Virus record (IMG/VR): IMGVR_UViG_2526164634_000030
Span: 1 to 24,429 of that record
Length of the DNA: 24,429 nucleotides
Direction: 5' to 3' (one strand)
DNA from: a virus
Lineage: Duplodnaviria > Heunggongvirae > Uroviricota > Caudoviricetes
Positions 4,053 to 24,087 of this stretch are shown here, in pieces (the first letter of the stretch is position 1; each line of letters opens with the position of its first letter). The notes under the pieces are model-generated. The model did not search any database. It had not been told where the DNA came from and saw nothing but the letters and a program-made list of their open reading frames with translations. The position numbers were made by a program, and so were the translations under genes.

Positions 4053-4055
4053 TTT

Positions 4056-5276: not shown

Positions 5277-5290
5277 GTGTTACCTGCGAT

Positions 5291-7383: not shown

Positions 7384-8843
7384 CAGGCCTGTCTCCCTAG
7401 CAGCTCCCAGATGTTCAGGGCTGAATTCATTGGGGCATAGTTGATCATCACCGAGTCGGCAAGGTTTGGCGATCGGGTTCCATCAGGCTGTTTATCAATA
7501 ACGATTTTTCCCACACCATTAATGGAATAGGTCGGCTGCGAAAGCTCGATGATGAGTTTATCTTTGAGTGCCATGCTACTGCTGATTGAGATGATTTCGT
7601 CCGGGTTGTAAGCCATACCTTCAACCACGGCGCGCCAGGTATTCTGAAAAAGTTTACGTAACCGCCACCAGCTCTGGGCTTTGGCGTTAGCGAAGAAGTC
7701 CTTGTTCAGACGTGCGGCTTGCCCGTTGTCCCCGCGAACAGCTTCATCATCCGGATCAAATACCGCGCCACTACCTCGAAACGGTGTGGCAAGTATTGAC
7801 GGTCGACGCGCAGCGTTACGCAGTTCGTTGATAGCGCGTGCATCGCCGCGAACGCCAGCGCCCAGCCCGTCCTCGTCAAAGCGAAACTCTTCGAGGTTGT
7901 CCTGTTCGCAAAAGCCGAAAACCTTCTCGACGGACTGATAAATGTCGCTGCCCACACCGGACCATTCCCGCACATTTTCCAGGAGGAAGCCATGACGGGT
8001 GGAAAAGGCATTTTTGTCCCTGCCTTCGTCGGCGACATCCATCGCGCCAAGTCGTTTGCCTGTTGGCTGGATACCCAGTTTGATATGCGCATCAACGGCA
8101 GCCTGTACCCATTCGGATGGAATCAGAACGCCTTCCGCTGATGCGCTGTAGTTCAGATCAAGTTCCTGTGCCACCACCACCGGATTATCGATTTTCTCGC
8201 ATTCCCTGCGATACCACTCTTCATCCTTGCGAGGATCATCCCGCCAGTGGAATGTGAATACCGGTATCTTCCCGCCATGACGCTTCTGAGCGAACGGGTT
8301 AGCCATGCCGTTAACTGAACTCAGGTCGATACGGCAACGCGTCGTTTGTGACAACGCCGCATCAATCAGCAGAGGACGCTGAAGGAATGCAGCCTCATCA
8401 ACCAGATAAAGCGTGGTACGGTCACCACGACCAATATTATCGCCAGCCTCGCCTTTGATAACGGCACCAGTTTCAGGAAACTCAACACGCATATATGGCG
8501 CGTGCTTCTTCTCGCTCCACGAACCGCGAAACTCTACAGGTAGCGTTTCCACGAACTTGCGTGCCTTCCAGAACAATGCTTTCGGGTCACCGGTGCTGTC
8601 GACGTATTCCTCTTTACGGGAGCCGAAACCGATAACCATTTCTTTGTTGAAGAGACAAAGCGAGCAGGCCAGTCCGATCGCGGTCCAACTGAGCCCCATT
8701 TCACGGGATTTTTCGGTAATACCATTCTCCCGATTGCCCCAGCGTTCCATAATCCAGTGGATCCACTCCTCCTGCTTAGGGAAGAGTAAAAACGGAATGG
8801 TCACCGGCAGGCCATAATCAATATTACGCGGGTCCGTTGTCAT
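7383..8843 (-). CDS. Terminase large subunit (486 aa in this frame)
   Basis: Terminase-type ATPase motifs near the N-terminus ([14 protein letters not shown] as a deviant Walker A-like segment; [10 protein letters not shown] as Walker B); followed by portal. Confidence 0.8.
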
Positions 8844-9004
8844 GCCCAGTCGATGATGAACTGAGCCGGATTGGTTCGGTAAAACTGCTTCAATACGGGC
8901 AATATTTCAGGATTCTGGCGAATGCGCTGTAGGCGTTCCATCCGCCATTCAAAAACCATCTGGTAATCAGGATGTTTAAAATCGAAGGGGAATGGTAACG
9001 GCAT
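8840..9004 (-). CDS. 54-codon ORF upstream of and overlapping the terminase large subunit ([54 protein letters not shown]); probably the displaced N-terminus of TerL
   Basis: Starts 2 nt after the small-terminase stop and ends in an ATGA overlap with the TerL start. Its end ([10 protein letters not shown]) followed by the TerL start (TTDPRN) reads like a continuous terminase N-terminus. Confidence 0.35.
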
Positions 9005-9006
9005 AC

Positions 9007-9558
9007 TTAGCCCATCATTTTTCTATACGCCTCTGCAGCCTGCTCCGGCGTTAAGTTGGTAATTTCTGTTCTGACTGGTCCTCCATCAGCGCCAGTCACT
9101 TCATTTTTGACGTTGTCTTTAAACGCCTGAACAGAAACATGACGCCCAAGCAACTCAAGGTTTTTAACCTTATCAGGCCATTTGATTTTCTTCAGAAGTG
9201 CGGCGCTATCTGCGGATACCATCTCCACGACATCCATTCCTGATAGCGTTGTGCGCCATACCTTAGGCCAGTCTTTAATGGGCTTTAGCTCACCGTTTTG
9301 CAGGAGAATGTCGAGCACATCCATCTGGTCGATTTCAATAAGGCGATTAAGTACATATTCTGCATTAATACCAACAAGATCATTGCGTTGCGCTTTCAGT
9401 TCAGCGATTCTGAATTGTATGTCAGGTTTTGACAGGTTTTCGGATGCGGTACGGTTAGCTGTCTTTGCGCTGTACCCCGCCCGAATAGCCGCTTGCGTGG
9501 CGTTTAAATCGATGAGGTACTCGCGACAGAACATTTCTTGCTTGTCGGTGAGTGCCAT
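9007..9558 (-). CDS. Terminase small subunit (183 aa)
   Basis: N-terminus [34 protein letters not shown] is the signature of the small-terminase family; located immediately upstream of the large subunit. Confidence 0.7.
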
Positions 9559-9693
9559 TGATATACCTGAGGAAATTATGAAGCTTCGCGTTGCATTTCA
9601 TCGATAACTTTTGGCGTCATCGGCTGATGCGCATATTTACGTTCAATCTCTGCAAAAATCCCGTTCATCGTTTCGCTGTCTGGTGGGATAACT

Positions 9694-9969
9694 TTAACGT
9701 TTAATCGTGCCATTGGTTTGTGCTGCCCTGTTTTTCTCAAAAGCCCTGATATCAGCCTTATCCCTGTTGCACTGTGCTAACGCTGACAACAACGCAACAT
9801 TCAGGTTAAGGCTAGCTCCCCACGTAAACGGGTCGGGTAAATCTGGCTGGGGTGTTTCATCCGTCAGACTGGCTGGTAACGGAACGACCGGCACCGACAC
9901 GTATACCGTTCGCGTATTCGTGCAACCGCTTAACTGCGCCAGAAGGAACGATACGAACAGCGCAATCAT
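9694..9969 (-). CDS. Rz1-like outer-membrane spanin lipoprotein (about 91 aa from internal start MIALFVSFLLAQLSGC)
   Basis: Signal-like hydrophobic N-terminus with a lipobox-like LSGC, then a Pro-rich segment (VPVVPLPASLTDETPQPDLPDP); out of frame with and overlapping the 3' part of the Rz-like gene. Confidence 0.4.
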   Translation of the reverse strand: MIALFVSFLLAQLSGCTNTRTVYVSVPVVPLPASLTDETPQPDLPDPFTWGASLNLNVALLSALAQCNRDKADIRAFEKNRAAQTNGTIKR

Positions 9970-10249
9970 CACCCGAAACAGCCACTTTGATATCTTCCTG
10001 GGTTCTCTGTGACTCCAGTGCGATCTGCTGTTTTGCATGCTGGTTAGCCTCTATAACTGTATTGATGATTTGCAGAGATTGCAGGACGTTACTGGTAATG
10101 GCTGTTGCAGATTCAGCATTTCGTACAGCCTCATCAGCACGCTCCTTTTCGTGCTGATATTTGCTGTAGTAATGCCCGGCAGACCAGATAAAAGAACCGA
10201 TGACGGTAACAAAGAAGGCAACAATAACCAGCTTATATCTCAGCTTCAT
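9857..10249 (-). CDS. Rz-like inner-membrane spanin (130 aa)
   Basis: N-terminal transmembrane segment (LVIVAFFVTVIGSFIW) followed by a charged, probably helical periplasmic domain; directly downstream of the endolysin with a short overlap. Confidence 0.5.
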   Translation of the reverse strand: MKLRYKLVIVAFFVTVIGSFIWSAGHYYSKYQHEKERADEAVRNAESATAITSNVLQSLQIINTVIEANQHAKQQIALESQRTQEDIKVAVSGDDCAVRIVPSGAVKRLHEYANGIRVGAGRSVTSQSDG

Positions 10250-10709
10250 TTACCACCCCACCCGCTTCTTTAAATCGGGCAATCAGGTCACCGATTCTAT
10301 GTTCATACTGACCGTAACCAGCCCCCGGCAACGAAGCCCAGATATTGCTGCAACGGTCGATTGCCTGACGAATATCGCCGCGGTCAATCATCGGTAAAGC
10401 GCCACGCTCTTTAATCTGCTGCAGCGCTACAGCATCCTGGCTTTCTGGAGAAAAATCTTTCAGGCCAAGTTGCTTGCGGTAGGCATCCCACCAGCGTGAA
10501 AGAAGCTGGTAGCGACCGGCTGCTGTTGATTTGAGTTTGAGGTTTAGCGTGACAAGTTTGCGGGGGTGATCGGAGTAATCAGTGAACAGTTCGCCACCGA
10601 CAATAACATCATAACCGTGATTTCTGGTTTTCTGCCGTCCGTTATCTGTTCCTTCTGACCATGCCACCATATCAAGGAAAGCTTTACGCTGGGAATTCAG
10701 TGTCTGCAT
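10233..10709 (-). CDS. Endolysin, lambda R-type lytic transglycosylase (158 aa)
   Basis: Near-identical over its length to lambda R as I recall it (…NQRKAFLDMxAWSEGTDNGRQKTRNHGYDVIVGGELFTDYSDHPRKLVTLN…); same length. Confidence 0.85.
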   Translation of the reverse strand: MQTLNSQRKAFLDMVAWSEGTDNGRQKTRNHGYDVIVGGELFTDYSDHPRKLVTLNLKLKSTAAGRYQLLSRWWDAYRKQLGLKDFSPESQDAVALQQIKERGALPMIDRGDIRQAIDRCSNIWASLPGAGYGQYEHRIGDLIARFKEAGGVVNEAEI

Positions 10710-10712
10710 TAA

Positions 10713-11063
10713 TTACTCCTTATGGGCACCGAACTTGTTACCGATGACCCTCATTGCCGCACCACGAATAGCATCAACACCAATCAGCCCCACCCCACCA
10801 CCAATGGCAACAGAAAGTGATTTAGGCCATCCGACATACTCAAGCGCGGATGCAAAGGTCAGCGTCAGAGCACCACAAAGCAGAATCTCAAGCGTTTTTC
10901 GTTTCCAGCCGCCGCCACCGCCAAAATAGGCAATGCGCAAACCAGCCATAATAATTGACATAACCACTGCACCCAGCGGCGTATCTCCACGCCACCAACT
11001 TTGTAAGAGTTCCAGTAAGTCAGGCCAGGAATGAGGGGCATTGTGCATTTTCATAAGCCTCAC
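10713..11063 (-). CDS. Holin, class I-like with three predicted TM segments (116 aa) and a possible dual-start motif
   Basis: Immediately upstream of the endolysin; hydrophobic segments LGAVVMSIIMAGLRIAYF, LEILLCGALTLTFASALEY and SVAIGGGVGLIGVDAI; N-terminus MRLMKMH has Met at codons 1, 4 and 6 separated by basic residues. Confidence 0.65.
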   Translation of the reverse strand: MRLMKMHNAPHSWPDLLELLQSWWRGDTPLGAVVMSIIMAGLRIAYFGGGGGWKRKTLEILLCGALTLTFASALEYVGWPKSLSVAIGGGVGLIGVDAIRGAAMRVIGNKFGAHKE

Positions 11064-11142
11064 CTCCGAGAGTTCGGATGGTGCTAAGTGTAAGATTCAG
11101 GCTCTCAGGCTTGCTAACAAGAAGTCGAGGATGTTTCCGGAG

Positions 11143-11178
11143 CCTAACAACGAAAAAGCCCCGGGACATGCCGGGGCC
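11143..11178 (-). terminator. Rho-independent terminator-like hairpin downstream of the moron gene, upstream of holin
   Basis: Stem 11158-11164 (GCCCCGG) pairs with 11171-11177; 6-nt loop; on the minus strand it is followed by TTTTTCGTTGT. Confidence 0.4.
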
Positions 11179-11271
11179 AGATGGAGTGCCAGATTAAGCT
11201 TCTGGCGGTATATACTCGTGTTTGATATCGTTAAATCGCCAAAAGTAACAATTCAAACAAAGAGGATTTTT

Positions 11272-11433
11272 ATGTCTGAAAAAAACAAGCCACAAGGTGA
11301 AAATAAACCTCAGCAACCCGTGGCACCAAAACCAACTCCAACACAAAGTACTGCGGACTTTGCTACACGTCGTGTTTTTGTTGGAGATTCTGCCGACTCA
11401 GTCATTGAACATATAAAAAAACAGCCGAGATAA
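11272..11433 (+). CDS. Small hypothetical protein (53 aa, MSEKNKPQGENKPQQPVAPKPTPTQSTADFATRRVFVGDSADSVIEHIKKQPR)
   Basis: Strong Shine-Dalgarno (AAAGAGGA, 5 nt spacer) before the ATG at 11272; convergent with, and overlapping by about 30 nt, the 3' end of the moron gene. Could be spurious. Confidence 0.25.
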   Translation: MSEKNKPQGENKPQQPVAPKPTPTQSTADFATRRVFVGDSADSVIEHIKKQPR

Positions 11434-11971
11434 ACATCGCCGCTACCGGAGCAAGGATGGTATACATCCTTGCTTTATCGAGACTCGTGCGGATTTTCTC
11501 ATTTTCCAACAGTAACTCTCTTGCTGTATCACTCAAGTCAACAAGGCGATACCTTCGTATAAGCGGCAATAACTTATCAGGTCCTAAATATCCTGCATCA
11601 GCGAATATTTTAAAGCTCGAGGGCTCCATATCCTTATATTTTTCATGATATAGATGATCAGGAGGGGCATTGATCAGGCCCCTAACCTTCACAGATAAAC
11701 CAGTACATACCAAGTAAATGGCGCACCATGTCCATAGTAATGTAAATGTGGTAATTCCGGCGGTGAGAAAATCGAAATTAGTTTTCTGTGTCAGCAATAA
11801 AAAAGATGAGCCAATTCCAACAATCTGAATGTTCAGAAGTTTGTATCCATTCTCAACATTGGTTTTGTTAGAAAGATGAATCTCTCGTATCGTCTCTTCC
11901 CCTTGTTTTTCAAGATAATCGACGAGCTCATCATCTACTCCTAAAAAATAATCTTTAGGTAGTTCTCTCAT
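11402..11971 (-). CDS. AT-rich membrane protein of unknown function (189 aa); moron between tR' and the lysis cassette
   Basis: GGAGGTG SD just before the ATG; markedly lower GC than flanking genes; predicted TM segments (IVGIGSSFLLLTQ, ITTFTLLWTWCAIYLVCTGL, MYTILAPVAAMFISAVFLYVQ); flanked by terminator-like hairpins on both sides. Confidence 0.55.
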   Translation of the reverse strand: MRELPKDYFLGVDDELVDYLEKQGEETIREIHLSNKTNVENGYKLLNIQIVGIGSSFLLLTQKTNFDFLTAGITTFTLLWTWCAIYLVCTGLSVKVRGLINAPPDHLYHEKYKDMEPSSFKIFADAGYLGPDKLLPLIRRYRLVDLSDTARELLLENEKIRTSLDKARMYTILAPVAAMFISAVFLYVQ

Positions 11972-12077
11972 CTCACCTCCACATCCTGTACTGAAAACAA
12001 TTTTACCAGAATGTCTCGATTCTAGGTATTCCGCCAGGAATCGCGCTCCAGAAATGAAACATCAGGTTCGCCAGTAC

Positions 12078-12109
12078 CAGAAACAACAAAACCCGCTCAA
12101 TGGCGGGTT
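12078..12109 (-). terminator. tR'-like rho-independent terminator downstream of the Q-like gene
   Basis: Stem AACCCGC (12090-12096) / GCGGGTT (12103-12109) with 6-nt loop; on the minus strand it is followed by TTTTGTTGTTTCT. The position matches lambda-type pR'-tR' architecture. Confidence 0.5.
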
Positions 12110-12192
12110 CTGGTAAAGTTCATGCGCTTGGTTCGCCTCGCGATACAGCTTTGCGAAGCATACCGGAATTGAAGCAGTTTATGCGTAAAAAA
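12110..12192 (-). promoter_or_regulatory. Probable late promoter (pR'-like) region between Q stop and the tR'-like terminator
   Basis: Inferred from position only; AT-rich with -35/-10-like hexamers on the minus strand (TTGATT ... TTCAAT). Not verifiable from sequence alone. Confidence 0.3.
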
Positions 12193-12735
12193 TCAAGCTA
12201 TTTTTTGAGCAAATGATTCTCGCATGGGAATATATAGGGCATACTCAGCAACAGCCAACCAATTAGCAATTCGCTTTTCGCATGTGCTAAAACACCACTC
12301 AGGATGTGCATCATTTAGCAATTCAGCCATTTTGCGCTTAGTCATCCCCCGTCCTTCATACCGTTGCCGGAGGACACTAATCAATCCAGGATGCTCTGCC
12401 AGCACCTCACTTATGACTCTATCAATACATAACGCCTCTGCATCAGTACAATGCGCCAGCCAGGTCTTTTGCTTGCCATTGATCATCTCTCGCAAAAACG
12501 CTTCCAGCTCAGGTTTCTCTATTCCCGCTTTTTTCATCCTGCGCAGGGCTTCATTGACGGCTGTTTTCGTCAATTTTTTGGATGCCAGCAACTGGTTAAA
12601 CATATTTCCCGTCTTACCGCCGCCAATATACGACCAGCGCCCCCACATGCGCAGTTTTCCCTGAATCCAGACACTTTCCAGCGTGGTGAGACGAAGGTGT
12701 TCCCCGCTTTTGCCTGTATTTGTTGGGTAAATCAT
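12193..12735 (-). CDS. Late-gene antiterminator Q-like protein (about 180 aa from internal start MIYPTNTGKSG)
   Basis: AAGGAAGG SD before the ATG at 12735; LRMWGRWSY motif reminiscent of one Q family; C-terminal HTH-like segment; position immediately upstream of pR'/tR' and the lysis genes. The track ORF (220 aa) is longer and overlaps the upstream gene. Confidence 0.55.
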   Translation of the reverse strand: MIYPTNTGKSGEHLRLTTLESVWIQGKLRMWGRWSYIGGGKTGNMFNQLLASKKLTKTAVNEALRRMKKAGIEKPELEAFLREMINGKQKTWLAHCTDAEALCIDRVISEVLAEHPGLISVLRQRYEGRGMTKRKMAELLNDAHPEWCFSTCEKRIANWLAVAEYALYIPMRESFAQKIA

Positions 12736-13022
12736 AAATAACCTTCCTTTCTCCAGATTTCTTGTGTGCGAAAAACACCTTCTGCATACATCAGGCGTAA
12801 TTCTTCTTTGGTGTAATCGCTGGTTTTTACCCGCCCGTCGATTAAATCGTGGCATGAGCTACAGGCAATCGCTGCCTGCATATCGTGTGGTTTTGTCGCT
12901 GTTCCGCACGTCCCCGCCAGCCTGTAATGCGCCAGCACAGAAGTTTCGGGATTGTGATTGCAGTAGCCAGGGATTCTGACCTGGCACATCTGGCCCCGCG
13001 CTGCTTTACGTAAACTCACCAT
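12732..13022 (-). CDS. DUF1364-type Cys-rich nin-region protein, YbcO-like (96 aa)
   Basis: Closely resembles DLP12 YbcO as recalled (…LRKAARGxxCQVRIPGxCNxNPETSVLAH…GTxTKP…IACSxCHD…); Cys/His zinc-binding pattern. Confidence 0.75.
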   Translation of the reverse strand: MVSLRKAARGQMCQVRIPGYCNHNPETSVLAHYRLAGTCGTATKPHDMQAAIACSSCHDLIDGRVKTSDYTKEELRLMYAEGVFRTQEIWRKEGYL

Positions 13023-13621
13023 TACGCAAACTCCAGTAGCTGCGCGGCCACATTTTCGACTTCCTCCGGAGAGGAAAATTTACGGAACAGGATCCAGTTC
13101 CACAGCACATTCAGTACAGATTTATAAACCTGCTGAAACTCGGTTTCGTCCATGTTCGCAAATGCGATAGATTTTGCCCTGCGCCCGCGGCTACCGTCTG
13201 GATAAATATGCTCGGTGTAAAATCCGGCCTGAATGGTTACCCACTCGCGGAAAGCCTCAAACGACTTTAGCAATGCCGTATCCCGGGTTCTGCGTGTCGC
13301 AACTGTATTCAGATATTGCTCTGCGGCTTCGCTCAGAGCTGGCGTATGTTCCCGACCTACTGATTCGCACAGGTACTCAACGAAGCCTGATACCAGTTCT
13401 CGTTCTCGAGGCGTGATCACCCCACCGCTCGGAGTCCAGTAATCGAATCCCAGTTGCAGGAGTTTGAAAAAACGCTTGTGAAATGCGTAGTTACGCACAC
13501 GCTTAAAGTCTGCGTGTATCCACTCACCTATTTTGATTTGATGCAAAAAATCGCAACTCTCCGGCGTCGCCGGGAGAAGTAATCCGGAAGAGGTTTGTTT
13601 GACCAGTTGTATATGCGCCAT
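13022..13621 (-). CDS. Conserved lambdoid nin-region protein (199 aa), DUF1367-like
   Basis: Position between the immunity-side genes and the YbcO-like/Q genes; sequence type recalled from Stx/lambdoid nin regions, unverified. Confidence 0.5.
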   Translation of the reverse strand: MAHIQLVKQTSSGLLLPATPESCDFLHQIKIGEWIHADFKRVRNYAFHKRFFKLLQLGFDYWTPSGGVITPRERELVSGFVEYLCESVGREHTPALSEAAEQYLNTVATRRTRDTALLKSFEAFREWVTIQAGFYTEHIYPDGSRGRRAKSIAFANMDETEFQQVYKSVLNVLWNWILFRKFSSPEEVENVAAQLLEFA

Positions 13622-13692
13622 CGTAGTTCTCCGCTGGCGCAGTAGAATGGGTGTTCAGCCCGTTATGTAGTATACCAGAATTAATGCCAATA

Positions 13693-13944
13693 CTAACATG
13701 ATGCTCTGACTCGCAATTCATCCAGCAGTTTATCATTTCCCATAATGTCACTTACCCTCATCGGTAAAAAAATTGCCTTTCGACCATTACGATACATCAT
13801 TGATTTTGGGGTTTCAGGGAAGTAATCCATTTCGACTATAACTGACAGGTCATCACGACGTATGACTGCGTATTTGCTACTAAATAGTCTCTTTATTTTT
13901 TCCACGATGCCTCCAGGTTTATAAGTACAAACGGTTATATCCAC
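13693..13944 (-). CDS. Hypothetical small protein (83 aa), first ORF of the nin-side operon
   Basis: ORF track only; no convincing SD; moderately AT-rich. Confidence 0.3.
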   Translation of the reverse strand: MDITVCTYKPGGIVEKIKRLFSSKYAVIRRDDLSVIVEMDYFPETPKSMMYRNGRKAIFLPMRVSDIMGNDKLLDELRVRASC

Positions 13945-14083
13945 ATAGAGACAAAAATATTAATCTGAAAAATATTTATTTCACGCCGTATATTTGATTG
14001 TTTAATGTGCAGGTACAATGACTTTTATTTTTTGTTGTGTATATAATCAAATATATGGTTATTTTTCACCCTGCGCATTCAGC

Positions 14084-14112
14084 GCGCAACAAAAAACCCG
14101 CCGAAGCGGGTT
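14084..14112 (-). terminator. Rho-independent terminator at the 3' end of the hok transcript
   Basis: Stem CCCGC (14097-14101) / GCGGG (14106-14110), loop CGAA; on the minus strand it is followed by TTTTTTGTTG. Confidence 0.55.
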
Positions 14113-14182
14113 AAGTGCGGGTGCGTTGAGGATGCCTGACACATCAGAGGTGGCGGGAGATTACTCTCCCGCCTAGTCACTC

Positions 14183-14338
14183 TTACTTCTCAGATTCGTA
14201 GTCCACGAAGACAGCAACCTCCGTCTGGCCGGTTCGGATTCGTACCTCGCAGAGGTCTTTCCTCGTTACCAGTGCCGTCACTATGACGGTTAAACAGATG
14301 ACGATAAGGGCGATTAACATCGCCTTTTGCTGCTTCAT
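14183..14338 (-). CDS. hok: Hok/Gef-family type I toxin (51 aa, MKQQKAMLIALIVICLTVIVTALVTRKDLCEVRIRTGQTEVAVFVDYESEK)
   Basis: Near-identical to HokD/RelF-type Hok peptides as recalled: single TM helix followed by the conserved CEVRIRTGQTEVAVF motif. The track ORF extends in frame upstream to 14395. Confidence 0.85.
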   Translation of the reverse strand: MKQQKAMLIALIVICLTVIVTALVTRKDLCEVRIRTGQTEVAVFVDYESEK

Positions 14339-14895
14339 AGCCTGCTTCTCCTTGCCTTTCGGCACGTAAGAGGCTAACCTACATTTGTGAGACATAGATT
14401 GGGCCTCAGATTAATGTTAAGCGTCTTGTAGGACGCGTAATGTTAACTGGGGCTTTTCTCTATCTGCCTTTTGGTGTTCATGCCTGAGGCAGATAGCCTC
14501 AAGCACCCGCAGCAATTCTAACTATCCAATAGATCAATGCCAACTTCTTTTCCTGCAACATCTCTCATCATAAGTGACCAAAATTCATCCAATCAGCACA
14601 AAAGAAACATTTAAAGCGTGAATGCTACCGAACGTTCATTTCAATTACATCGTTTTGATTTTTAACAGTTTTTACCTCAACAAATCAAATGGCATTAGCA
14701 TTCATCATGGAAGAAAGACTGATAAAAATGATCATTTTCAATGACTTATGATCACACCGGGTATTGCCAAGTCATTCCTTTTACGCCAGGATACCCACAA
14801 GTGAGTAGTCGAGGAGAGTTTGCCAATTTTTGCGATATAAATTTCAATGTCCGAAGAACCATTAATTGTTAATTGATTCTGTATAAGGTATTAAC

Positions 14896-15525
14896 ATGAC
14901 AATTTCATATATTCCTATTCTGAAAGCGAAACGTTCTGAGTTATCAGCTTTATCGCAGCTATCCATTGAAAAGAAATCAAAAATTTTGCCATTACTCGAA
15001 ATTGAACCAGTGCCAATTGACCCTGATTCAGGTATTGCCTTAAAGAGTTATAACGAGACTCTTATAGAGTTCGGAAAGAAAGTCTCAAAATCTTGCTCAG
15101 ATATGCAAGGTGTTTATATTGATGGATTATTAATTGAAGAGCATTTTATTTCTCCTGAAGATCATTACCCTATAATAAATGCGGTTAATCAAGTTAGAGA
15201 TATGGGGATAAGAGTTATTCCTGTCAGTTCACCAACTCGCCCATCTAACTATAAAGGAGCGATTGATGAATTAATGCAGAATGAAATATGCTTGAGATTA
15301 ACCACGTTAGATCTGGTTAACCCACAATTAATAACGCATTACATTAATCATCTGGGAATTCCTTTATCAAATATTGATATAATTATTGACTTAAGAGATG
15401 AGTTAACCGAGGATAAACTTAATTCCGGCGAACTATATACTTTGGCAATGGGATTGATAAACAATCTGGCGCACCTCAATGAATACAGAAAAGTGATTCT
15501 TTCTGGGGGTTCATTTCCTAGGTAA
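14896..15525 (+). CDS. AT-rich orphan protein of unknown function (209 aa as read; last codons and stop are supplied by the IS1 terminus)
   Basis: AAGG SD about 8 nt before the ATG; long uninterrupted ORF in a strongly AT-biased stretch; Lys/Ile/Asn/Leu-rich; ends ...ILSGGSFPR with Arg and stop read from the first bases of IS1. Confidence 0.5.
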   Translation: MTISYIPILKAKRSELSALSQLSIEKKSKILPLLEIEPVPIDPDSGIALKSYNETLIEFGKKVSKSCSDMQGVYIDGLLIEEHFISPEDHYPIINAVNQVRDMGIRVIPVSSPTRPSNYKGAIDELMQNEICLRLTTLDLVNPQLITHYINHLGIPLSNIDIIIDLRDELTEDKLNSGELYTLAMGLINNLAHLNEYRKVILSGGSFPR

Positions 15526-15535
15526 TGACTCCAAC

Positions 15536-16039
15536 TTATTGATAGTGTTTTATGTTCAGATAATGCCCGATGACTTTGTCATGCAGCTCCACCGATTTTG
15601 AGAACGACAGCGACTTCCGTCCCAGCCGTGCCAGGTGCTGCCTCAGATTCAGGTTATGCCGCTCAATTCGCTGCGTATATCGCTTGCTGATTACGTGCAG
15701 CTTTCCCTTCAGGCGGGATTCATACAGCGGCCAGCCATCCGTCATCCATATCACCACGTCAAAGGGTGACAGCAGGCTCATAAGACGCCCCAGCGTCGCC
15801 ATAGTGCGTTCACCGAATACGTGCGCAACAACCGTCTTCCGGAGCCTGTCATACGCGTAAAACAGCCAGCGCTGGCGCGATTTAGCCCCGACGTATCCCC
15901 ACTGTTCGTCCATTTCCGCGCAGACGATGACGTCACTGCCCGGCTGTATGCGCGAGGTTACCGACTGCGGCCTGAGTTTTTTAAATGGCGGAAAATCGTG
16001 TTGAGGCCAACGCCCATAATGCGGGCGGTTGCCCGGCAT
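15536..16039 (-). CDS. insB: IS1 InsB (167 aa; translated as InsAB' transposase by -1 frameshifting)
   Basis: Matches IS1 InsB as recalled (…[72 protein letters not shown]). Confidence 0.9.
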
Positions 16040-16233
16040 CCAACGCCATTCATGGCCATATCAATGATTTTCTGGTGCGTACCGGGTTGAGAAGCGGTGT
16101 AAGTGAACTGCAGTTGCCATGTTTTACGGCAGTGAGAGCAGAGATAGCGCTGATGTCCGGCGGTGCTTTTGCCGTTACGCACCACCCCGTCAGTAGCTGA
16201 ACAGGAGGGACAGCTGATAGAAACAGAAGCCAC
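15958..16233 (-). CDS. insA: IS1 InsA (91 aa)
   Basis: Matches IS1 InsA as recalled ([43 protein letters not shown]…). Confidence 0.9.
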
Positions 16234-16777
16234 TGGAGCACCTCAAAAACACCATCATACACTAAATCAGTAAGTTGGCAGCATCACCCGATTTCCGAGA
16301 AAAATTCTTGATGAGTTGTTTCTCGCTGCGATCTGATGCTGAAAGCTAAAGCAAGTAGCCAGGCTTTGTCTTTATTATCCATCGGAATACCTTATTACTG
16401 GTTGTGTGAGAACTCCAGTATACCACCGAGCCTGAAGTGGTAAAAAGACAGGCGCACAACACGAAGGCGCATTTCCGGTATTCATAAAGAGTCGGTCTTG
16501 TCTGTTAAATTTAAATGGTGGGAGTGCGCCTCCGGTTGTAAATAACGACATTGCTATGTGTAGTCTTTGGCGGCATCAGTTCTACTCCGTGGCTGCCCTG
16601 TCGCCCCTTTTTAAAGTGAATTTTGTGATGCGGTGAATGCGGCTAAGCGCACGCGGCACAGTTAAAAGCATCAGTGTTATGGGTGGATTATCCGGCGTTA
16701 ATTGTTAACTGGTTAACGTCACCTGGAGGCACCAGGCACCGCATCGACAAAATTCATTTGTAAAAATGGAGATAATT

Positions 16778-16999
16778 ATGATTGCTCATCACTTCGGAAC
16801 TGATGAAATACCACGTCAGTGTGTGACCCCTGGCGATTATGTTCTTCATGAAGGTCGGACATATATCGCCTCGGCAAACAATATTAAAAAGCGAAAACTT
16901 TATATTCGTAGCCTGACTACAAAAACATGCATTTCTGACTGCATGATTAAAGTCTTCCTCGGTCGTGATGGTTTACCTGTAAAGGCGGAGTCATGGTAA
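16778..16999 (+). CDS. kilR: KilR-like cell-division inhibitor of Rac-type prophage (73 aa from [14 protein letters not shown])
   Basis: GGAG SD before the ATG at 16778; 73-aa product matches Rac KilR as recalled; followed by ydaE with a TAATG stop/start overlap. Confidence 0.7.
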
Positions 17000-17169
17000 T
17001 GACTAAGAAAATAAAATGTGCTTATCACCTTTGCAATAAAGAAATTGAAGAAAGCAAAATCATTACAAGACCACTTCATTTCATGCGTGGAGTTATACCA
17101 ACGACGGAAATGAAAAAATATTGTAGTGAAAGTTGTGCCGAAAAAGACCAGATGGCACACGAACTTTAA
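16999..17169 (+). CDS. ydaE: YdaE-like small Cys-rich metal-binding protein (56 aa, [20 protein letters not shown]…KKYCSESCAEKDQMAHEL)
   Basis: Not in the ORF track (under 60 aa); translated by hand. Four Cys in a CxxxxC…CxxxC pattern; matches Rac YdaE as recalled; start overlaps the kilR stop. Confidence 0.7.
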   Translation: MTKKIKCAYHLCNKEIEESKIITRPLHFMRGVIPTTEMKKYCSESCAEKDQMAHEL

Positions 17170-17243
17170 TTAACTGACTATTCGAAACTGAATTTATGCC
17201 AGCAATGGCAGGGATTCGCTCAACCTTAATTAAGGAGAAAAAC

Positions 17244-17519
17244 ATGATTACCAGTTATGAAGCCACTGTTGTAACTACTGATGACATTGTTCACGAGGTT
17301 AATCTGGAAGGAAAGCGTATTGGCTACGTGATTAAAACAGAAAATAAAGAAACCCCATTCACTGTGGTTGATATCGACGGTCCATCAGGCAACGTTAAAA
17401 CACTTAACGAAGGCGTCAAAAAAATGTGCCTGGTGCATATCGGAAAGAATCTGCCCGCAGAAAAAAAAGCCGGATTTCTGGCAACTCTGATTGCAATGAA
17501 ATTAAAAGGTGAAATCTGA
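17244..17519 (+). CDS. racC: RacC-like protein (91 aa from MITSYEATVVTTDDIV)
   Basis: AAGGAGAAAAAC-ATG SD; position between ydaE and recE as in Rac; sequence matches RacC as recalled. Confidence 0.65.
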   Translation: MITSYEATVVTTDDIVHEVNLEGKRIGYVIKTENKETPFTVVDIDGPSGNVKTLNEGVKKMCLVHIGKNLPAEKKAGFLATLIAMKLKGEI

Positions 17520-17619
17520 AAGAAATAGCCTGCGTATGGCGCAGGCTATGAACAGTGTGTATCCGGCAAGATTATTCACTGAACAAACGAATTTTAATCT
17601 GAGTTGAGGTTAAAAAACA

Positions 17620-20600
17620 ATGAGCACCGATAAACAAGTTTACCCACTGTATTACGAAGCAAAAAATGACAAAGTAAGAAAACGTCTCGGTATTAAAGGC
17701 GGTTTTTACTGGGCTGAAGCGAAAAAATTATCCATTGCCATCTCCCGTGGTGCTGTTGCAATTGACGATGCTGGCTACGATGAAGATGACTTCAAAAAAC
17801 CTGTTCGCGTCAATTTGCCCATTGTTGATGACCTCCCGCCAGAAGGCGTATTTGATACGGAATTCTGCAACCGTTACGAAAAAGGCGGGGAAGATGGCAT
17901 CACAATGGTATTTATCGCGCCCTCCCCCTCTGCGCAGGGCAAACCAGCCAGCACTGACAACACCAATGTTAATGGCGAAGACATGACGGAGATTGAGGAG
18001 AATATGCTACTTCCGATTTCTGGCCAGGAGCTGCCCATTCGCTGGCTTGCTCAACACGGCAGCGAAAAACCAGTAACGCACGTTTCACGCGACGAACTCC
18101 AGGCATTACACATTGCACGGGCTGAAGAACTACCGGCTGTTACTGCCCTGGCTATTTCGCATAAAACCAGTCTGCTCGACTCGCTGGAGATTCGCGACCT
18201 CCACAAACTGGTTCGTGACACTGACAAAGTTTTCCCTAATCCTGGTAATTCAGACCTGGGACTAATAACTGCTTTTTTCGAAGCATACCTGGACGCTGAC
18301 TACACTGATCGGGGTCTGCTGACAAAAGAGTGGATGAAAGGAAATCGTGTTTCACGCATCACCCGCACGGCTTCCGGTGCTAATGCTGGCGGTGGGAACA
18401 AAACCGATCGCAATCCGAATTTAGTACACACCCTCGACACACTGGATGTGGAGATTGCAGCAGCCACACTTCCGATGGATTTTAATATTTATGAAATTCC
18501 GGGCAGCGTTTATCGTCGCGCAAAAGAAGTAGTCCTGAACAAAGAAAGTCCGTTCAAAGAATGGTCCGCAGCACTTCGTGCAACCCCGGGTATTCTGGAC
18601 TATTCCCGCGCCGCTATTTTTGCACTTATCCGAAGCGCACACCCTGAATTTTATCACTACCCGGGACGCCTTCAGGGGTATATCAACGCCTATTTGACGG
18701 AAACTGATCACGAGAACCCCAGCAAGGAAACTCTCACAGCTGCCCGGCATACGCCGGAAAAAGATATCCTGGAAGAAATTAACCGCGAGGTGGTTACTGA
18801 GCGTGAAACAGAAGAAGAAAAACCACAACCATCTGACGCAATGGCAGGTGAACAGGCAACAACTGAAACAATGGAACCGGATACAACTGAACATGGCCAG
18901 AACGCGCAGTCGCTGGATGCTCAGTCGCAGGTGAGTTCCGCTAACCAAGTAAAAGTCACCGCTGACGAAGTAAACAAAATTATGCAGGCAGCCAATATCA
19001 GCCAGCCTGACGCCGATAAGTTACTTGCTGTATCGCGTGGTGAATTTGTTGAGGGGATTAGCGACCCTAATGATCCGAAATGGGTCAAGGGGATCCAGAC
19101 TCGCGATTCTGTGAACCAGAACCAGCATGAATCGGAACGGAACGACCAAAAAGCGGAACAAAACAGCCCAAATGCGTTACAAAACGAGCCAGAAACGAAA
19201 CAATCCGAACCAGTAGCGCAACAGGAACCGGAAAAAGTCTTCACCGCCTGCGGTCAGAGCGGTGGCGGCAACTGCCCTGATTGTGGCGCGGTGATGGGCG
19301 ACGCAACATACCAGGAAACATTCGATGAAGAGAATCAGGTTGAAGTTCAGGAAAATGATCCGGAGGAAATGGAAGGTGCTGAACATCCGCACAAGGAGAA
19401 CGCTGGCAGCAATCCGCATTGCGATTGCAGTGATGAAGCTGGTGAAGCGACAGCACCTGTAGTAACTGAAATCATGTGGCCGTCATATTTCGAGCCTGGC
19501 CGCTATGAAAACCTCCCGAACGAGGTTTATCACTCCGCCAACGGAATAAGCAGCACAATGCTGAAGGATGCCCGCATCAGCCTGATGTATTACCACGGAC
19601 GGCACATTGCCGGAACTATTCTGGGCGAGGAAAGTGATGCATTGCTGCGTGGGCGGATTATTCACAGCTATGTTCTGGAAACGGATAAATTCGCTGATGA
19701 GTATGCCATTCCGGTACCGGTTCCTGAATATGTGGTTACTACTTCTAACGAACTGATCGCCATCATTAAAAAACACAATGCCAGTCTGCCAGCACTGATG
19801 ACACCAGAGCAGATGAAAGAGTGGATCGAAAGCTACAACAGCACTCTTATACAGCCACTGTCGGTAAGTGCCGGGGCCGAAGAAACAGGCATCCTTTACG
19901 GTTCGCTTCCGGAGGAATTCCGGCGTATTCCTGAGGGGGAAAAACACACAGCATCAGCAATGAAAGCCTGTATTAAAGAATACAACGCAAGCCTCCCTCC
20001 TCTGCTGAAAGCCAGTGGAACACGGGAGCAGCTCCTGGAGCAAATTGAAACTGTAGATCCAGAACTGGCAAAAAAAGAACGTGCTAAATCTTTGCCTTAC
20101 AACATCAGTGGCACAAAAGAGCAATTAACCGAAATCGCCCGGAAAATTCGCCCGGAACTGGTGACACTGGAGGACTGGCAAAAATGCCAGCAAGAAGAAA
20201 ACGCCGGGAAAACGTTTATCAGTCCGGATATGTATGAACAGGCAAAAAATATTCACGCAGCACTGCAAAACAATACTGATGCAGCAAGGCTACTCAACCA
20301 CCCGGATCGCAAATCTGAAATCAGCTATTTCGGGTTTGATGAAGAAACCGGGCTGGAAATCAGGGTCCGTCCTGATATCGAAATCCGGCTGCCATACGAA
20401 AGCATTTGCGCCGACGTGAAGTCAGTCAGCCTCGGTTATGTGCGACAGGAACGACTGAAAGATCGCCTGCACCGTGAAATTATTGAGCGTGATTATCACC
20501 TCAGCGCAGCAATGTATTGCGATGTGGCAAACCTGGACAAATTTTTCTGGATCTTCGTCAACAAAGATGCTGGCTATCACTGGGTGGCCGTCGTGGAAGC

Positions 20601-20763
20601 CTCGCAGGAACTCCTGGAACTTGGTCGACAGGAATATCGCCGGACGCTACGACAGATAAACGAAGCTCTGGAGACAAACAACTGGCCAGCACCGATTACC
20701 GAAAGTTATACCGACGAATTAAACGACTTTGATCTTCGTCGTCTTGAAGCACTGAGCATCTGA
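17620..20763 (+). CDS. recE: Exonuclease VIII (RecE)-like 5'-3' dsDNA exonuclease, 1047 aa
   Basis: Long blocks match Rac RecE as recalled (…NTNVNGEDMTEIEENMLLPISGQELPIRWLAQHGSEKPVTHVSRD…, …ASRGEFVEGISDPNDPKWVKGIQTRD…); acidic low-complexity middle; C-terminal nuclease domain; followed by an annealing-protein gene. Confidence 0.75.
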   Translation: MSTDKQVYPLYYEAKNDKVRKRLGIKGGFYWAEAKKLSIAISRGAVAIDDAGYDEDDFKKPVRVNLPIVDDLPPEGVFDTEFCNRYEKGGEDGITMVFIAPSPSAQGKPASTDNTNVNGEDMTEIEENMLLPISGQELPIRWLAQHGSEKPVTHVSRDELQALHIARAEELPAVTALAISHKTSLLDSLEIRDLHKLVRDTDKVFPNPGNSDLGLITAFFEAYLDADYTDRGLLTKEWMKGNRVSRITRTASGANAGGGNKTDRNPNLVHTLDTLDVEIAAATLPMDFNIYEIPGSVYRRAKEVVLNKESPFKEWSAALRATPGILDYSRAAIFALIRSAHPEFYHYPGRLQGYINAYLTETDHENPSKETLTAARHTPEKDILEEINREVVTERETEEEKPQPSDAMAGEQATTETMEPDTTEHGQNAQSLDAQSQVSSANQVKVTADEVNKIMQAANISQPDADKLLAVSRGEFVEGISDPNDPKWVKGIQTRDSVNQNQHESERNDQKAEQNSPNALQNEPETKQSEPVAQQEPEKVFTACGQSGGGNCPDCGAVMGDATYQETFDEENQVEVQENDPEEMEGAEHPHKENAGSNPHCDCSDEAGEATAPVVTEIMWPSYFEPGRYENLPNEVYHSANGISSTMLKDARISLMYYHGRHIAGTILGEESDALLRGRIIHSYVLETDKFADEYAIPVPVPEYVVTTSNELIAIIKKHNASLPALMTPEQMKEWIESYNSTLIQPLSVSAGAEETGILYGSLPEEFRRIPEGEKHTASAMKACIKEYNASLPPLLKASGTREQLLEQIETVDPELAKKERAKSLPYNISGTKEQLTEIARKIRPELVTLEDWQKCQQEENAGKTFISPDMYEQAKNIHAALQNNTDAARLLNHPDRKSEISYFGFDEETGLEIRVRPDIEIRLPYESICADVKSVSLGYVRQERLKDRLHREIIERDYHLSAAMYCDVANLDKFFWIFVNKDAGYHWVAVVEASQELLELGRQEYRRTLRQINEALETNNWPAPITESYTDELNDFDLRRLEALSI

Positions 20764-20774
20764 GGAAGGACACA

Positions 20775-21827
20775 ATGAACGAATTAACTCAACAAGAAAA
20801 TATTAACTCTAATGTTGCGGTTTTCAGCCCTCAGTCCCTGGCTGCAATTCAGACATTTTCCCAGGTAATGGCTTCCGGCATGGCTACTGTACCGGAACAC
20901 CTCCGGGGAAATCCATCAGACTGCATGGCCATCACCATGCAGGCGATGCAGTGGCAAATGAACCCTTACGCAGTAGCTCAGAAAACTTTCGTTGTGAATG
21001 GTGTGCTCGGATATGAAGCGCAACTGGTTAATGCCGTAATCAGTACTCGTGGGCCGCTAACCGGGCGTATTGAATATGACTGGTTCGGGCCGTGGGAAAA
21101 AATTATCGGGAAATTTGAAATTAGGAAGAACGACAAGGGGAAAGAATATCGTGTACCTGGCTGGAAGCTGGCCGATGAAAACGGGATCGGAGTTCGCGTC
21201 CAGGCAACACTACGCGGAGAGAGCAAGCCACGCGTACTGGAGTTACTTCTGGCGCAGGCCAGAACACGTAACTCAACGTTATGGGCCGATGATCCTCGCC
21301 AGCAGCTTGCCTATCTGGCACTGAAACGCTGGGCGCGCCTTTATTGCCCTGAAGTGATTCTTGGAGTGTACACCCGGGACGAACTGGACGAACCACAGGA
21401 AAAAATCATTAATCCGGTTCAGGAACATAAAAATACATCCGCCTGCCGTGCGGAACGTGAAACAACAATTATTGAGCAGGATGCCGGGGAAAACTGGATC
21501 AGTGCTTTCCGTGAACGTATTGAGCAGGCACAAAGCACCGGAGAAACAACATCACTTCGCCAGGAAGTGGAAGATCATAAAAATACTCTTGGCGCTCTCT
21601 ACACAGAACTTAAAGGAAAAGTGGTTCAGCGTCATCACCGTCTCAATGCTATTGCCCGTATTGAGACGATGATAAATGACCTGCCTTCATCAGGTGATCC
21701 AGAAGCAGAACAAAAATTTATTGCTCTGGAAAATACGCTGAATGCTGCACGACCACATCTGGGAGAATTATATGAGGCGTATAAAACGACACTGACAGAT
21801 ATGAAACCAGAATATATCGGCTCCTGA
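20775..21827 (+). CDS. Single-strand annealing protein (RecT/Redbeta-superfamily-like), 350 aa, partner of the RecE-like exonuclease
   Basis: Position immediately downstream of recE with an 11-nt gap; central segment (…GVLGYEAQLVNAVISTRGPLTGRIEYDWFG…) has a RecT-like pattern, but the protein does not match K-12 RecT as I recall it and is about 80 aa longer. Confidence 0.5.
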   Translation: MNELTQQENINSNVAVFSPQSLAAIQTFSQVMASGMATVPEHLRGNPSDCMAITMQAMQWQMNPYAVAQKTFVVNGVLGYEAQLVNAVISTRGPLTGRIEYDWFGPWEKIIGKFEIRKNDKGKEYRVPGWKLADENGIGVRVQATLRGESKPRVLELLLAQARTRNSTLWADDPRQQLAYLALKRWARLYCPEVILGVYTRDELDEPQEKIINPVQEHKNTSACRAERETTIIEQDAGENWISAFRERIEQAQSTGETTSLRQEVEDHKNTLGALYTELKGKVVQRHHRLNAIARIETMINDLPSSGDPEAEQKFIALENTLNAARPHLGELYEAYKTTLTDMKPEYIGS

Positions 21828-21890
21828 TATTTACTATGGCGGTGTAGCCTCACCGCCATAACAAAACTTTATTTTATGAGAGAAAAGACA

Positions 21891-22085
21891 ATGCGGTATG
21901 AAAAAGTCAAACCATGTCCGTTTTGTGGTTGTCCATCAGTAACGGTGAAAGCCATTTCAGGATATTACCGCGCAAAGTGTAACGGATGCGAATCCCGAAC
22001 CGGCTATAGTGGAAGTGAAAAAGAAGCACTCGAAAGATGGAATAAACGAACTACTGGAAATAATAATGGAGGTGTTCATGTATAA
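21891..22085 (+). CDS. ralR: RalR/Lar restriction-alleviation protein (64 aa from MRYEKVKPCPFCGCPSV)
   Basis: Near-identical to Rac Lar/RalR as recalled, including the CPFCGC…CNGC Cys cluster and the C-terminal WNKRTTGNNNGGVHV. Confidence 0.8.
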   Translation: MRYEKVKPCPFCGCPSVTVKAISGYYRAKCNGCESRTGYSGSEKEALERWNKRTTGNNNGGVHV

Positions 22086-22266
22086 AATTACTGCCACTAT
22101 TGAAAAGGAAGGTGGCACTCCTACTAACTGGACAAGATATTCAAAATCTAAATTAACGAAATCAGAATGCGAAAAAATGCTCTCAGGGAAAAAAGAAGCA
22201 GGCGTTTCCAGAGAGCAGAAAGTAAAGCTGATAAATTTTAATTGCGAGAAACTTCTGTCCTCGTGA
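22078..22266 (+). CDS. ydaC: YdaC-like small protein (62 aa from MYKITATIEKEGG)
   Basis: GGAGG SD 5 nt before the ATG, which overlaps the ralR stop; position matches Rac gene order. Start could alternatively be 22066. Confidence 0.5.
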   Translation: MYKITATIEKEGGTPTNWTRYSKSKLTKSECEKMLSGKKEAGVSREQKVKLINFNCEKLLSS

Positions 22267-22366
22267 GTTGCATTATATACAAATTAGAACTTCATAGCTG
22301 ATTATTAAAAATCAACCACATCCGCCAGTATTCTGTATATTTACTGGCGGTCATATCGTAAGAGGT

Positions 22367-23696: not shown

Positions 23697-23743
23697 TTTT
23701 AACGTAAATGGATTGTTAAATGTATTTTGGTTGTGATATAACC

Positions 23744-23760
23744 AAAAAAGACCGGAATAC
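23744..23760. repeat. Second copy of the sdsR 3'-terminal sequence (AAAAAAGACCGGAATAC); candidate att core or integration scar
   Basis: Near-identical (one extra C) to 23828-23843, which is the 3' end/terminator of sdsR; lies about 48 bp beyond the int stop codon. Confidence 0.5.
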
Positions 23761-23827
23761 AGAAATTCGAGTAAATTTCGGGGAATTTCGGGGAGACGTT
23801 TACAACTGATTGATTTTAAATACAATT

Positions 23828-24058: not shown

Positions 24059-24087
24059 ATTGGAAATCAAAAGGCTATTTTAGGTAA

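Follow-up and report, generated by a model that had tools for sequence, protein, structure and literature searches.

A Rac-type prophage of Escherichia coli with a very probable IS1-associated deletion of its immunity and replication genes

The window, i.e., the whole stretch of 24,429 nucleotides analysed here, corresponds to positions 1-24429 of the Escherichia coli draft contig AIHD01000043.1 (assembly GCA_000250275.2), and carries a prophage integrated between yebY and pphA; the reference locus, L001, is the same prophage in E. coli FDAARGOS_1059 (NZ_CP066032.1, intact reference at 3487905-3515425). On the minus strand, the nin/Q-type genes (12193-13621) are identical to the annotated reference and comprise a DUF1367 gene (13022-13621; Pfam, 327.7 bits), a YbcO gene (12732-13022; Pfam, 150.3 bits) and a DUF1133/Q-like antiterminator gene (12193-12855; Pfam, 361.8 bits, plus a weak Phage_antitermQ match of 27 bits), which in the intact phage lie downstream of the PR-side operon. 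The same strand also encodes the holin, endolysin and Rz proteins, as well as the terminase-to-head genes. On the plus strand, the early-left operon (16778-23696) shows 100% identity to the reference and is followed by chromosomal yebY. Its members are kilR (16778-16999; NF008465, 160.9 bits against a cutoff of 92), ydaE (16993-17169; NCBIfam, 87.9 bits against a cutoff of 35), a racC-like gene (17244-17519), recE (17620-20763) and recT (20775-21827), both assigned to their Pfam families, ralR (21891-22085; NCBIfam, 161.8 bits against a cutoff of 113), a DUF1187 gene (22078-22266), xis (22373-22654; Pfam Exc) and int (22620-23696; Pfam integrase), and a match to NCBIfam PRK09790 (202.1 bits) also falls within it. 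With KilR, YdaE, RecE, RecT and RalR encoded in one orientation and xis and int in last position, this is a Rac-type early-left operon, and both gene sets are present and oriented as described in an initial annotation made from the sequence alone.

Three features separate the late genes from kilR, in the positions given to them by that annotation: a hok locus, an AT-rich open reading frame (ORF) and an IS1 element. The hok gene (14183-14338, minus strand; Pfam HOK_GEF, 81.1 bits against a gathering score of 22) has its stop codon in common with a mok-type extended ORF of 70 aa (14183-14395, minus strand), and is accompanied by a sok-family RNA (14333-14508, minus strand; Rfam, 121.7 bits against a gathering score of 59) and a terminator-like hairpin at 14112-14095. 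A Hok protein, a mok frame and a sok region, as found here, define a type I toxin-antitoxin system of the hok/mok/sok kind. Since hok and mok hold the same position in the Rac-type phage Rac-SA53, the locus is native Rac-type phage cargo and lies outside the rearrangement described below.

The AT-rich ORF (14896-15525, plus strand), located in a stretch of approximately 35% GC, retains 208 of the 365 native codons of a Beta-protein gene, followed by an arginine codon and a stop codon contributed by IS1, and marks the left breakpoint. The translated product matches PF14350 (78.8 bits, model positions 1-204 of 342) and in tblastn shows 100% identity to the reference protein (365 aa) over residues 1-208; the Beta-IS1 fusion is deposited as EHX44620.1/WP_000156211.1. 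In the reference, full-length Beta matches the PADLOC model PD-Lambda-2_C (139.8 bits), and its sce7726 partner matches the PADLOC model 'cll' (97.7 bits).

The adjoining IS1 (15521-16288, ins genes on the minus strand) is an intact copy of 768 bp, with IRR at its left end and IRL at its right end. Its terminal inverted repeats (GGTGATGCTGCC... and GGTAATGACTCC...) match at 18 of 23 positions, and it codes for a 91-aa InsA and a 232-aa InsAB' fusion through an A6C slippery site, AAAAAAC, at IS1 position 307. Pfam domains DDE_Tnp_IS1 (261.3 bits), Zn_ribbon_InsA and HTH_Tnp_IS1 were all recognized; judging by its sequence, the copy is complete and potentially active. No target-site duplication of 8-9 bp surrounds this element, the flanking 9-mers being CATTTCCTA and CGATTTCCG. 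The missing duplication marks the IS1 copy as the product of a deletion or recombination, and leaves its identity as IS1 unaffected. Simple IS1 insertions nearby do have 8-bp duplications, in PEC209 and in Rac-SA53 (where it is annotated), with the PEC209 duplication appearing as an 8-bp overlap at L001 15356-15363. The single match of a junction probe with '100% coverage', in PEC209, consists of two joined pieces and corresponds to a different IS1 insertion located 158 bp upstream.

The right breakpoint, at 16289, falls within a second gene, a rac10-like ORF of 64 aa on the minus strand, whose first 31 codons are kept (16289-16382); tblastn places residues 1-31 at 16382-16290 with 100% identity. 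Between IS1 and kilR, which starts at 16778, there are 489 bp, in agreement with the approximately 490 bp initially reported. The description of this spacer as non-coding does not hold, as it includes the gene for the small RNA DicF (16555-16606, plus strand; Rfam RF00039, 55.3 bits against a gathering score of 48, full model 1-52), closed by a terminator-like hairpin (16589-16604) and a T-run. Nor is the AT-rich ORF the 'orphan' it was taken for: it belongs to a known family and is a Beta-protein gene cut short. Weak Rfam matches to rsmX, ceN48 and Trp_leader scored far under their gathering thresholds and were set aside. A consensus scan of the interval between IS1 and kilR recovered no sigma-70-like site on the plus strand. 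A hybrid promoter for kilR formed by IS1 and its flank was also considered, as IRL carries an outward-facing TTGGCA, but the -10 hexamers found 16-18 nt away (GAGAAA, AGAAAA and GAAAAA) are poor; because of these hexamers and of the result of the consensus scan, it was rejected as the main reading.

The same prophage was found in three complete E. coli genomes, namely FDAARGOS_1059, O111:H2 strain 12A and O55:H7 DEC5E, with no substitutions over the shared 23.6 kb in two of them and 99.5% identity in the DEC5E copy. Alignment against the FDAARGOS_1059 prophage, of the kind that the initial annotation had proposed, mapped the breakpoints exactly and revealed collinear flanks: window positions 1-15520 correspond to L001 3-15521, and positions 16289-24429 to L001 21827 onward, with no substitutions and four single-base indels, at short homopolymers. 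Those at window positions 5697 and 8845 would, if real, be frameshifts in the head-morphogenesis and large-terminase genes. In place of L001 15522-21826, a block of 6,305 bp, the window has a lone IS1, and a spacing of approximately 6.3 kb is common to all three complete genomes with the intact prophage.

The contents of the lost block were identified by reference annotation, Pfam and PHROGs. It comprises the sce7726/cII-like gene together with the C-terminal 157 codons (3' 43%) of its partner, the Beta gene; three small or DUF genes, among them those for DUF977 and DUF1627; the DnaC-like loader YdaV, whose reference copy matches IstB_IS21 and Bac_DnaA; a YdaU-like, O-like replication initiator (phrog_2509, 305 bits in the reference); YdaT; and a divergent pair (L001 20484-21242) formed by a Cro-like regulator (YdaS/DicC-type) and a 139-aa CI-like repressor (RacR/DicA-type). 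The first ORF in the leftward operon was lost as well, along with the divergent PR/PRM-type region and the terminator that follows the repressor gene. The window has no copy of an operator-like palindrome, AACAC-N5-GTGTT, of which the deleted block has three; the TTGACA at L001 21340 is flanked by two of these copies. This arrangement suggests that a putative PL-type promoter, TTGACA-17-TTTAAT, located within L001 21300-21400 and bracketed by operator-like palindromes, would have gone with the block.

When all 12 proteins of the lost block were searched against the window by tblastn, only Beta residues 1-208 and rac10-like residues 1-31 were recovered, the remaining matches having E values of at least 0.002. 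For the CI-like and Cro-like proteins of the immunity module, E values were at least 0.3 for both, and neither the O-like initiator nor the DnaC-like loader of the replication module was detected. The initial observation that candidates for CI, Cro, O and P are absent from the window is thereby confirmed. Such genes might have been placed elsewhere in the prophage; the rest of the intact reference prophage, from the tail genes to pinE/pphA, contains no second repressor or replication gene.

With collinear flanks and 6,305 bp gone, an IS1-associated deletion, by either of two routes considered below, is very probably what occurred at this locus. The initial annotation had left the choice between deletion and replacement; both hok/sok and the Beta gene are part of the intact Rac-type phage, which makes this a pure deletion and not a replacement. 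Its proposal of a defective prophage retaining kil, recET and ral, a toxin and lysis genes is supported, as these genes were kept and the immunity/replication block was not.

Provided that the deletion is real, adjacent deletion is moderately favoured over recombination between two IS1 copies. In an adjacent deletion, IS1 would have inserted at one of the breakpoints, either in the AT-rich Beta gene or in the small rac10-like ORF, and one of its ends would then have attacked the other site on the same molecule by intramolecular replicative transposition; the intervening DNA would be taken out, and no target-site duplication would be left around the element. A precursor with IS1 at one breakpoint, flanked by a duplication and with the 6.3 kb kept, was searched for among 5,426 complete E. 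coli genomes, and none was found; nor did any of these genomes share the right junction, the support for which comes from this single draft contig only. Insertion followed by adjacent IS-mediated deletion is common in E. coli evolution lines (PMC4300727).

The second route, a sub-variant of the same deletion that leads to the same product, is possible without being probable. Here, two directly oriented IS1 copies, inserted independently into the Beta gene and the rac10-like ORF, would have recombined in a RecA-dependent manner, excising the 6.3 kb together with one IS1. This accounts for the observed structure, with a single IS1, no matching duplication and flanks that end at 15520 and 16289, and the locus has been hit by IS1 repeatedly, given the independent insertions in PEC209, Rac-SA53 and GDSC2239PM. 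However, it takes three events against two, and a single insertion at either exact site is present in none of the 5,426 complete genomes. The left junction was also recovered from three Logan run assemblies (ERR144884, ERR294527 and DRR015807), but their contigs end 23-30 nt into IS1 and are blind to what lies past it.

The source is a draft assembly (GCA_000250275.2), and an assembly artefact was also weighed, in which two IS1 copies would surround an intact 6.3-kb block, with the repeat collapsed and the outer flanks joined by the assembler. E. coli genomes contain many copies of IS1 (median of approximately 10 matching places per genome), and the other differences from the reference are single-base homopolymer indels typical of draft sequencing error. 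Nevertheless, the 112-kb contig reads through all 768 bp of a complete IS1 and continues into unique sequence at either end, a collapse would mean that 6.3 kb of unique DNA had been dropped, several independent read sets confirm the left junction as real, and the same type of IS1-bounded loss occurs in an independent complete genome (GDSC2239PM), all of which makes an artefact quite unlikely.

A deletion mediated by microhomology with later insertion of IS1 was rejected, because the ATTTCC motif is kept on both sides instead of being reduced to one copy. In each retained flank the motif is 2 nt away from IS1, a coincidence seen in 1.2% of random breakpoint pairs, and the pair may reflect an IS1 target preference. 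Finally, the reading in which the compact form is ancestral and the 'intact' relatives gained the block later is effectively refuted by the truncation of two ORFs where they meet IS1 (the Beta gene at codon 208 of 365, the rac10-like gene at codon 31 of 64), and is further opposed by flanks without substitutions relative to the intact form, by the inability of a phage without repressor and replication genes to propagate, by the full gene order of Rac-SA53 and other sequenced Rac-type phages, and by the absence of both IS1 junctions (300-bp probes) from the 5,426 complete E. coli genomes. No evidence in support of an ancestral compact form was found. As background, Rac remnants with kilR and without racR are common, kilR being present in 48% of E. 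coli strains and ydaS/racR in approximately 34% (PMC5700373).

Regarding the consequences of an IS1-associated deletion, the prophage would no longer be capable of immunity, of replication or of the transcription cascade from early genes through Q to late genes; it would be locked in place and could not be induced, and its exact breakpoints and lost genes are now available for annotation. From sequence considerations, the dicF-kilR-ydaE-racC-recE-recT-ralR-xis-int segment has probably been cut off from its native promoter and repressor, and the operon from dicF to int would be largely silent. The probable loss of the promoter would also explain how the cell can do without the repressor although KilR and DicF are toxic. 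In K-12, a RacR-type repressor is essential only through its silencing of neighbouring toxic genes, which can be safely lost when repressor, targets and promoters leave together; there, laboratory deletions from sieB to ydaU that take racR out and leave kilR in are viable (PMC5700373). Some transcription may still arise, either by read-through of the truncated Beta gene past IS1 or, weakly, from IS1 outward, and hok/sok, with its own promoters, would stay as an addiction module.

A Rac prophage in GDSC2239PM has likewise lost all its immunity and replication genes, and carries an IS1 of opposite orientation whose edge lies 181 bp further right, approximately 85 bp upstream of dicF. The module was lost there independently, again with IS1 at the boundary, and this case and the window together provide a small data point on the shedding of toxic prophage modules. 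A stronger reading, that IS1-bounded removal of racR/ydaST is a recurrent, selected 'domestication' step and that the allele is a natural, sbcA-like source of low-level constitutive RecET and DicF, seems unlikely; if true, residual transcription out of or through IS1 could feed RecET and DicF. At least two independent events are known, and dicF-kilR-recET-ralR and hok/sok would be kept.

Regarding known systems, in prophage Qin a DicA-type repressor gene is followed by small ORFs, DicF and then dicB. The intact form of the prophage studied here resembles the Qin dicA-dicC/ydfABC-dicF-dicB region in its DicA-type repressor, small ORFs in the same direction, DicF and cell-division inhibitor gene; it differs in having kilR after DicF, rather than dicB, and in the window neither repressor nor promoter is left. 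The Qin layout is mentioned in PMC11879457. The Beta and sce7726 pair of the intact relative is similar to P4 beta/cII ('gop-beta-cll' in PADLOC) and to PD-Lambda-2, and the two genes are labelled beta and CII phage-like in Rac-SA53; nonetheless, the intact relative has two genes only, with no gop or third component annotated beside them, and in the window this candidate defence set is incomplete, with Beta residues 1-208 left and the partner deleted. The Rac prophage of K-12 is integrated at ttcA, in contrast to the yebY/pphA site of the prophage studied here, which also has a different integrase; its head/tail module is of a different type from that of Rac, with DUF2184, DUF1073 and DUF3383 genes and baseplate genes.

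The closest overall likeness in gene order is to Rac-SA53 (KU052037.1), with q-ybcO-irsA-hok/mok-beta-cII-like ... lygF-ydaW-ydaV-ydaU-ydaT-dicC-dicA-rac11-rac10-kilR-ydaE-racC-recE, as in the intact relative, and a nucleotide identity of approximately 93% over 63% of the region; in the window, the part of this order between mid-beta and mid-rac10 is missing. Classical IS1 deletion formation was reportedly described by Reif and Saedler in 1975. As in an IS1 adjacent deletion, a single IS lies at the joint without a duplication, one side is contiguous and a few kb are gone; the difference is that here the event is deduced from the product, which recombination between two IS1 copies would give as well. 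In engineered deletions of K-12 Rac, racR was lost with ydaS/ydaT, kilR was kept, and the strains were viable (Krishnamurthi et al., 2017, PMC5700373; Bindal et al., 2017, PMC5700377), whereas the deletion in the window is natural and IS1-made, and extends to the Beta/sce7726 pair, the replication genes and the region of the PL-type promoter. Taken together, the case is one of textbook IS-mediated prophage decay and not of a new kind of system.

Positions 1-24429 of AIHD01000043.1, a contig in the E. coli draft assembly GCA_000250275.2, match the window exactly. When window positions 12000-18000 were searched by megablast, coverage did not reach 80% of the query in any complete E. coli genome, and both sides were matched at 99.5-100% identity in three genomes, FDAARGOS_1059 (NZ_CP066032.1), O111:H2 strain 12A and O55:H7 DEC5E. 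Alignment to the intact FDAARGOS_1059 prophage (reference locus L001, plus L003) gave exact breakpoints, resolving a left block (window 1-15520, L001 3-15521) and a right block (window 16289-24429, L001 21827 onward), with zero substitutions and only four single-base indels in short homopolymers. Between these blocks the reference carries 6,305 bp (L001 15522-21826), replaced in the window by IS1 alone. Relative to the reference, the indels lie at window 5697, 8845, 4524 and 23828; the additional T at 5697 splits a Mu-F-like head-morphogenesis gene, the missing C at 8845 leaves the large terminase gene in two parts (7383-8843 plus 8840-9004), and that at 4524 is a frameshift on the reference side. 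All occur at short homopolymers, so that they may reflect either genuine decay or sequencing error.

The retained left arm comprises head, terminase, lysis and nin/Q-type genes (1-13944, minus strand), including an AT-rich (~39% GC) 189-aa ORF (11402-11971, minus) that occupies the classical moron/toxin position, with the Q-like gene and the holin as neighbours, and had no Pfam or PADLOC match, its sole match being phrog_11870, of unknown function. The right arm comprises kilR, ydaE, a racC-like gene, recE, recT, ralR, a DUF1187 gene, xis and int (plus strand, from 16778), with the chromosomal yebY (24088-24429) after int. All the items that the initial annotation had listed between these arms are present: hok (14183-14338, minus; HOK_GEF, 81.1 bits) with a mok-type extension to 14395, an AT-rich ORF (14896-15525, plus; in a stretch of ~35% GC), IS1 (15521-16288) and a spacer. 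An Rfam sok-family match (14333-14508, minus; 121.7 bits) is reported on hok's own strand, whereas Sok runs antisense to the hok leader, and what the model matches there is probably the conserved leader region.

The missing block contains the final 157 codons of the gene for a 365-aa Beta protein (PF14350; PADLOC PD-Lambda-2_C, 139.8 bits), a convergent sce7726-family gene (PADLOC 'cll', 97.7 bits), a zinc-ribbon-like 118-aa ORF, a DUF977 gene (lygF), a DUF1627 gene (ydaW), ydaV (DnaC/IstB-like ATPase), a 264-aa replication initiator with an O-like match (phrog_2509, 305 bits), ydaT, an 80-aa Cro/YdaS/DicC-like HTH protein, a divergent 139-aa CI/RacR/DicA-like HTH protein, a hairpin terminator, a rac11-like 72-aa ORF, and the 3' half of a rac10-like 64-aa ORF. 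When all twelve block proteins were searched against the window by tblastn, just two truncated stubs (Beta and rac10-like) were recovered, bearing out the reported absence of repressor, Cro, O and P candidates. Nor were such genes found in a non-canonical order, as no further regulator or replication gene lies in the rest of the reference prophage, which runs from the tail/baseplate genes to pinE/pphA. In Rac-type phages, the Beta gene and the convergent sce7726/'cll' gene form a two-gene pair (L001 14897-16532) adjoining hok. This pair, a relative of P4 beta/cII and a candidate anti-phage module, is inactivated by IS1 in the window.

Several findings speak against this architecture being a conserved, ancestral state: an ORF is interrupted at each end of IS1 (codon 208 of 365 in Beta, codon 31 of 64 in the rac10-like ORF), the phage Rac-SA53 and further Rac-type phages keep the full order q-ybcO-irsA-hok/mok-beta-cII-like-...-ydaW-ydaV-ydaU-ydaT-dicC-dicA-rac11-rac10-kilR, and neither IS1 junction is present among 5,426 complete genomes. 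The AT-rich ORF is no orphan gene, being the truncated Beta gene itself, and since this gene and hok/sok are native Rac-type cargo, the event was a deletion and not the replacement that had been proposed as its alternative. The initial observation is confirmed, and its interpretation as an IS1-associated deletion is supported with corrections. These extend to the spacer, whose length of about 490 bp holds (489 bp from IS1 to the kilR start codon at 16778); it is not non-coding, as it carries the 31-codon rac10-like stub (16290-16382, minus) and, directly upstream of kilR, a full-length DicF-family sRNA gene (16555-16606, plus; Rfam 55.3 bits, gathering score 48) that ends in a hairpin and T-run. 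A sub-threshold STnc100-like structured RNA match (44.5 bits, gathering score 47) overlies the kilR leader (16596-16785, plus), identical in the intact relative (L001 22134-22323).

The 768-bp IS1 copy appears intact from its sequence, with imperfect inverted repeats, InsA, the A6C site and a 232-aa InsAB'. No target-site duplication surrounds it, the flanking 9-mers being CATTTCCTA and CGATTTCCG; such a joint, with one IS copy and no duplication, is characteristic of two routes. Intramolecular transposition of IS1 ('adjacent deletion') would require two events, whereas recombination between two directly repeated IS1 copies, the less favoured route, would require three. We favour adjacent deletion for this reason and because IS insertion with a subsequent adjacent deletion by the IS is a frequent event in E. 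coli (PMC4300727); sequence alone cannot decide. Contigs assembled from three independent public runs carry a left junction of identical sequence, and the right junction is supported by the window contig only; an assembly artefact collapsing two IS1 copies is very improbable, as the assembler would have had to discard 6.3 kb of unique DNA. Each retained flank has the hexamer ATTTCC at 2 nt from IS1 (window 15511-15516 and 16291-16296; 1.2% of random breakpoint pairs), and CAGCAT occurs both in the IRL tip of IS1 and in the deleted-side sequence of the right breakpoint (L001 21818-21823), features that may stem from a target preference of IS1. The AT-rich locus seems to be a hotspot for IS1, with two further independent simple insertions in E. 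coli PEC209 (L002 12284-13051; Beta gene, 158 bp upstream, 8-bp overlap/duplication) and in Rac-SA53 (L011 6015-6780; just downstream of the cII-like sce7726 gene, 8-bp duplication annotated).

The palindrome AACAC-N5-GTGTT (15-16 nt) occurs three times in the reference, always within the deleted block, and has zero copies in the window. One copy (L001 20751-20765) is placed between the divergent Cro/CI genes, and two (L001 21326-21340 and 21349-21363) bracket TTGACA-17-TTTAAT (L001 21340-21368), right after the repressor gene's terminator and upstream of rac11. We read these as putative OR-type and OL-type operators and a PL-type promoter, in which case the loss of the repressor and the replication genes from the window would have been accompanied by that of both early promoter regions and of the route for Q expression. 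A scan found no sigma-70-like site on the plus strand between IS1 and kilR, and the ins genes point away from kilR, so the retained operon is probably silent, which fits the viability of a cell keeping the FtsZ inhibitor KilR without a repressor.

An independent, analogous loss is found in the Rac prophage of strain GDSC2239PM (NZ_CP136018.1; intR and trkG present), where immunity and replication genes are absent from the stretch that separates the nin genes from kilR. Its IS1 (L009 8735-9502), in the opposite orientation, borders on a position 181 bp further to the right, ~85 bp ahead of dicF(-kilR); loss of the module with IS1 at its edge has thus occurred more than once. Every component is a member of a known family, and IS-mediated prophage decay of this kind is textbook. 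In the intact form, the arrangement leading up to kilR (a repressor, small ORFs and dicF ahead of the division inhibitor) parallels the dicA/ydfABC-dicF-dicB operon of the Qin prophage (mentioned in PMC11879457). The window case is matched by engineered deletions in the K-12 Rac prophage, reaching from sieB to ydaU, which removed racR, left kilR and were viable, and since kilR occurs in 48% and ydaS/racR in ~34% of 154 E. coli genomes, kilR-bearing Rac remnants without a repressor are already known as common (PMC5700373).
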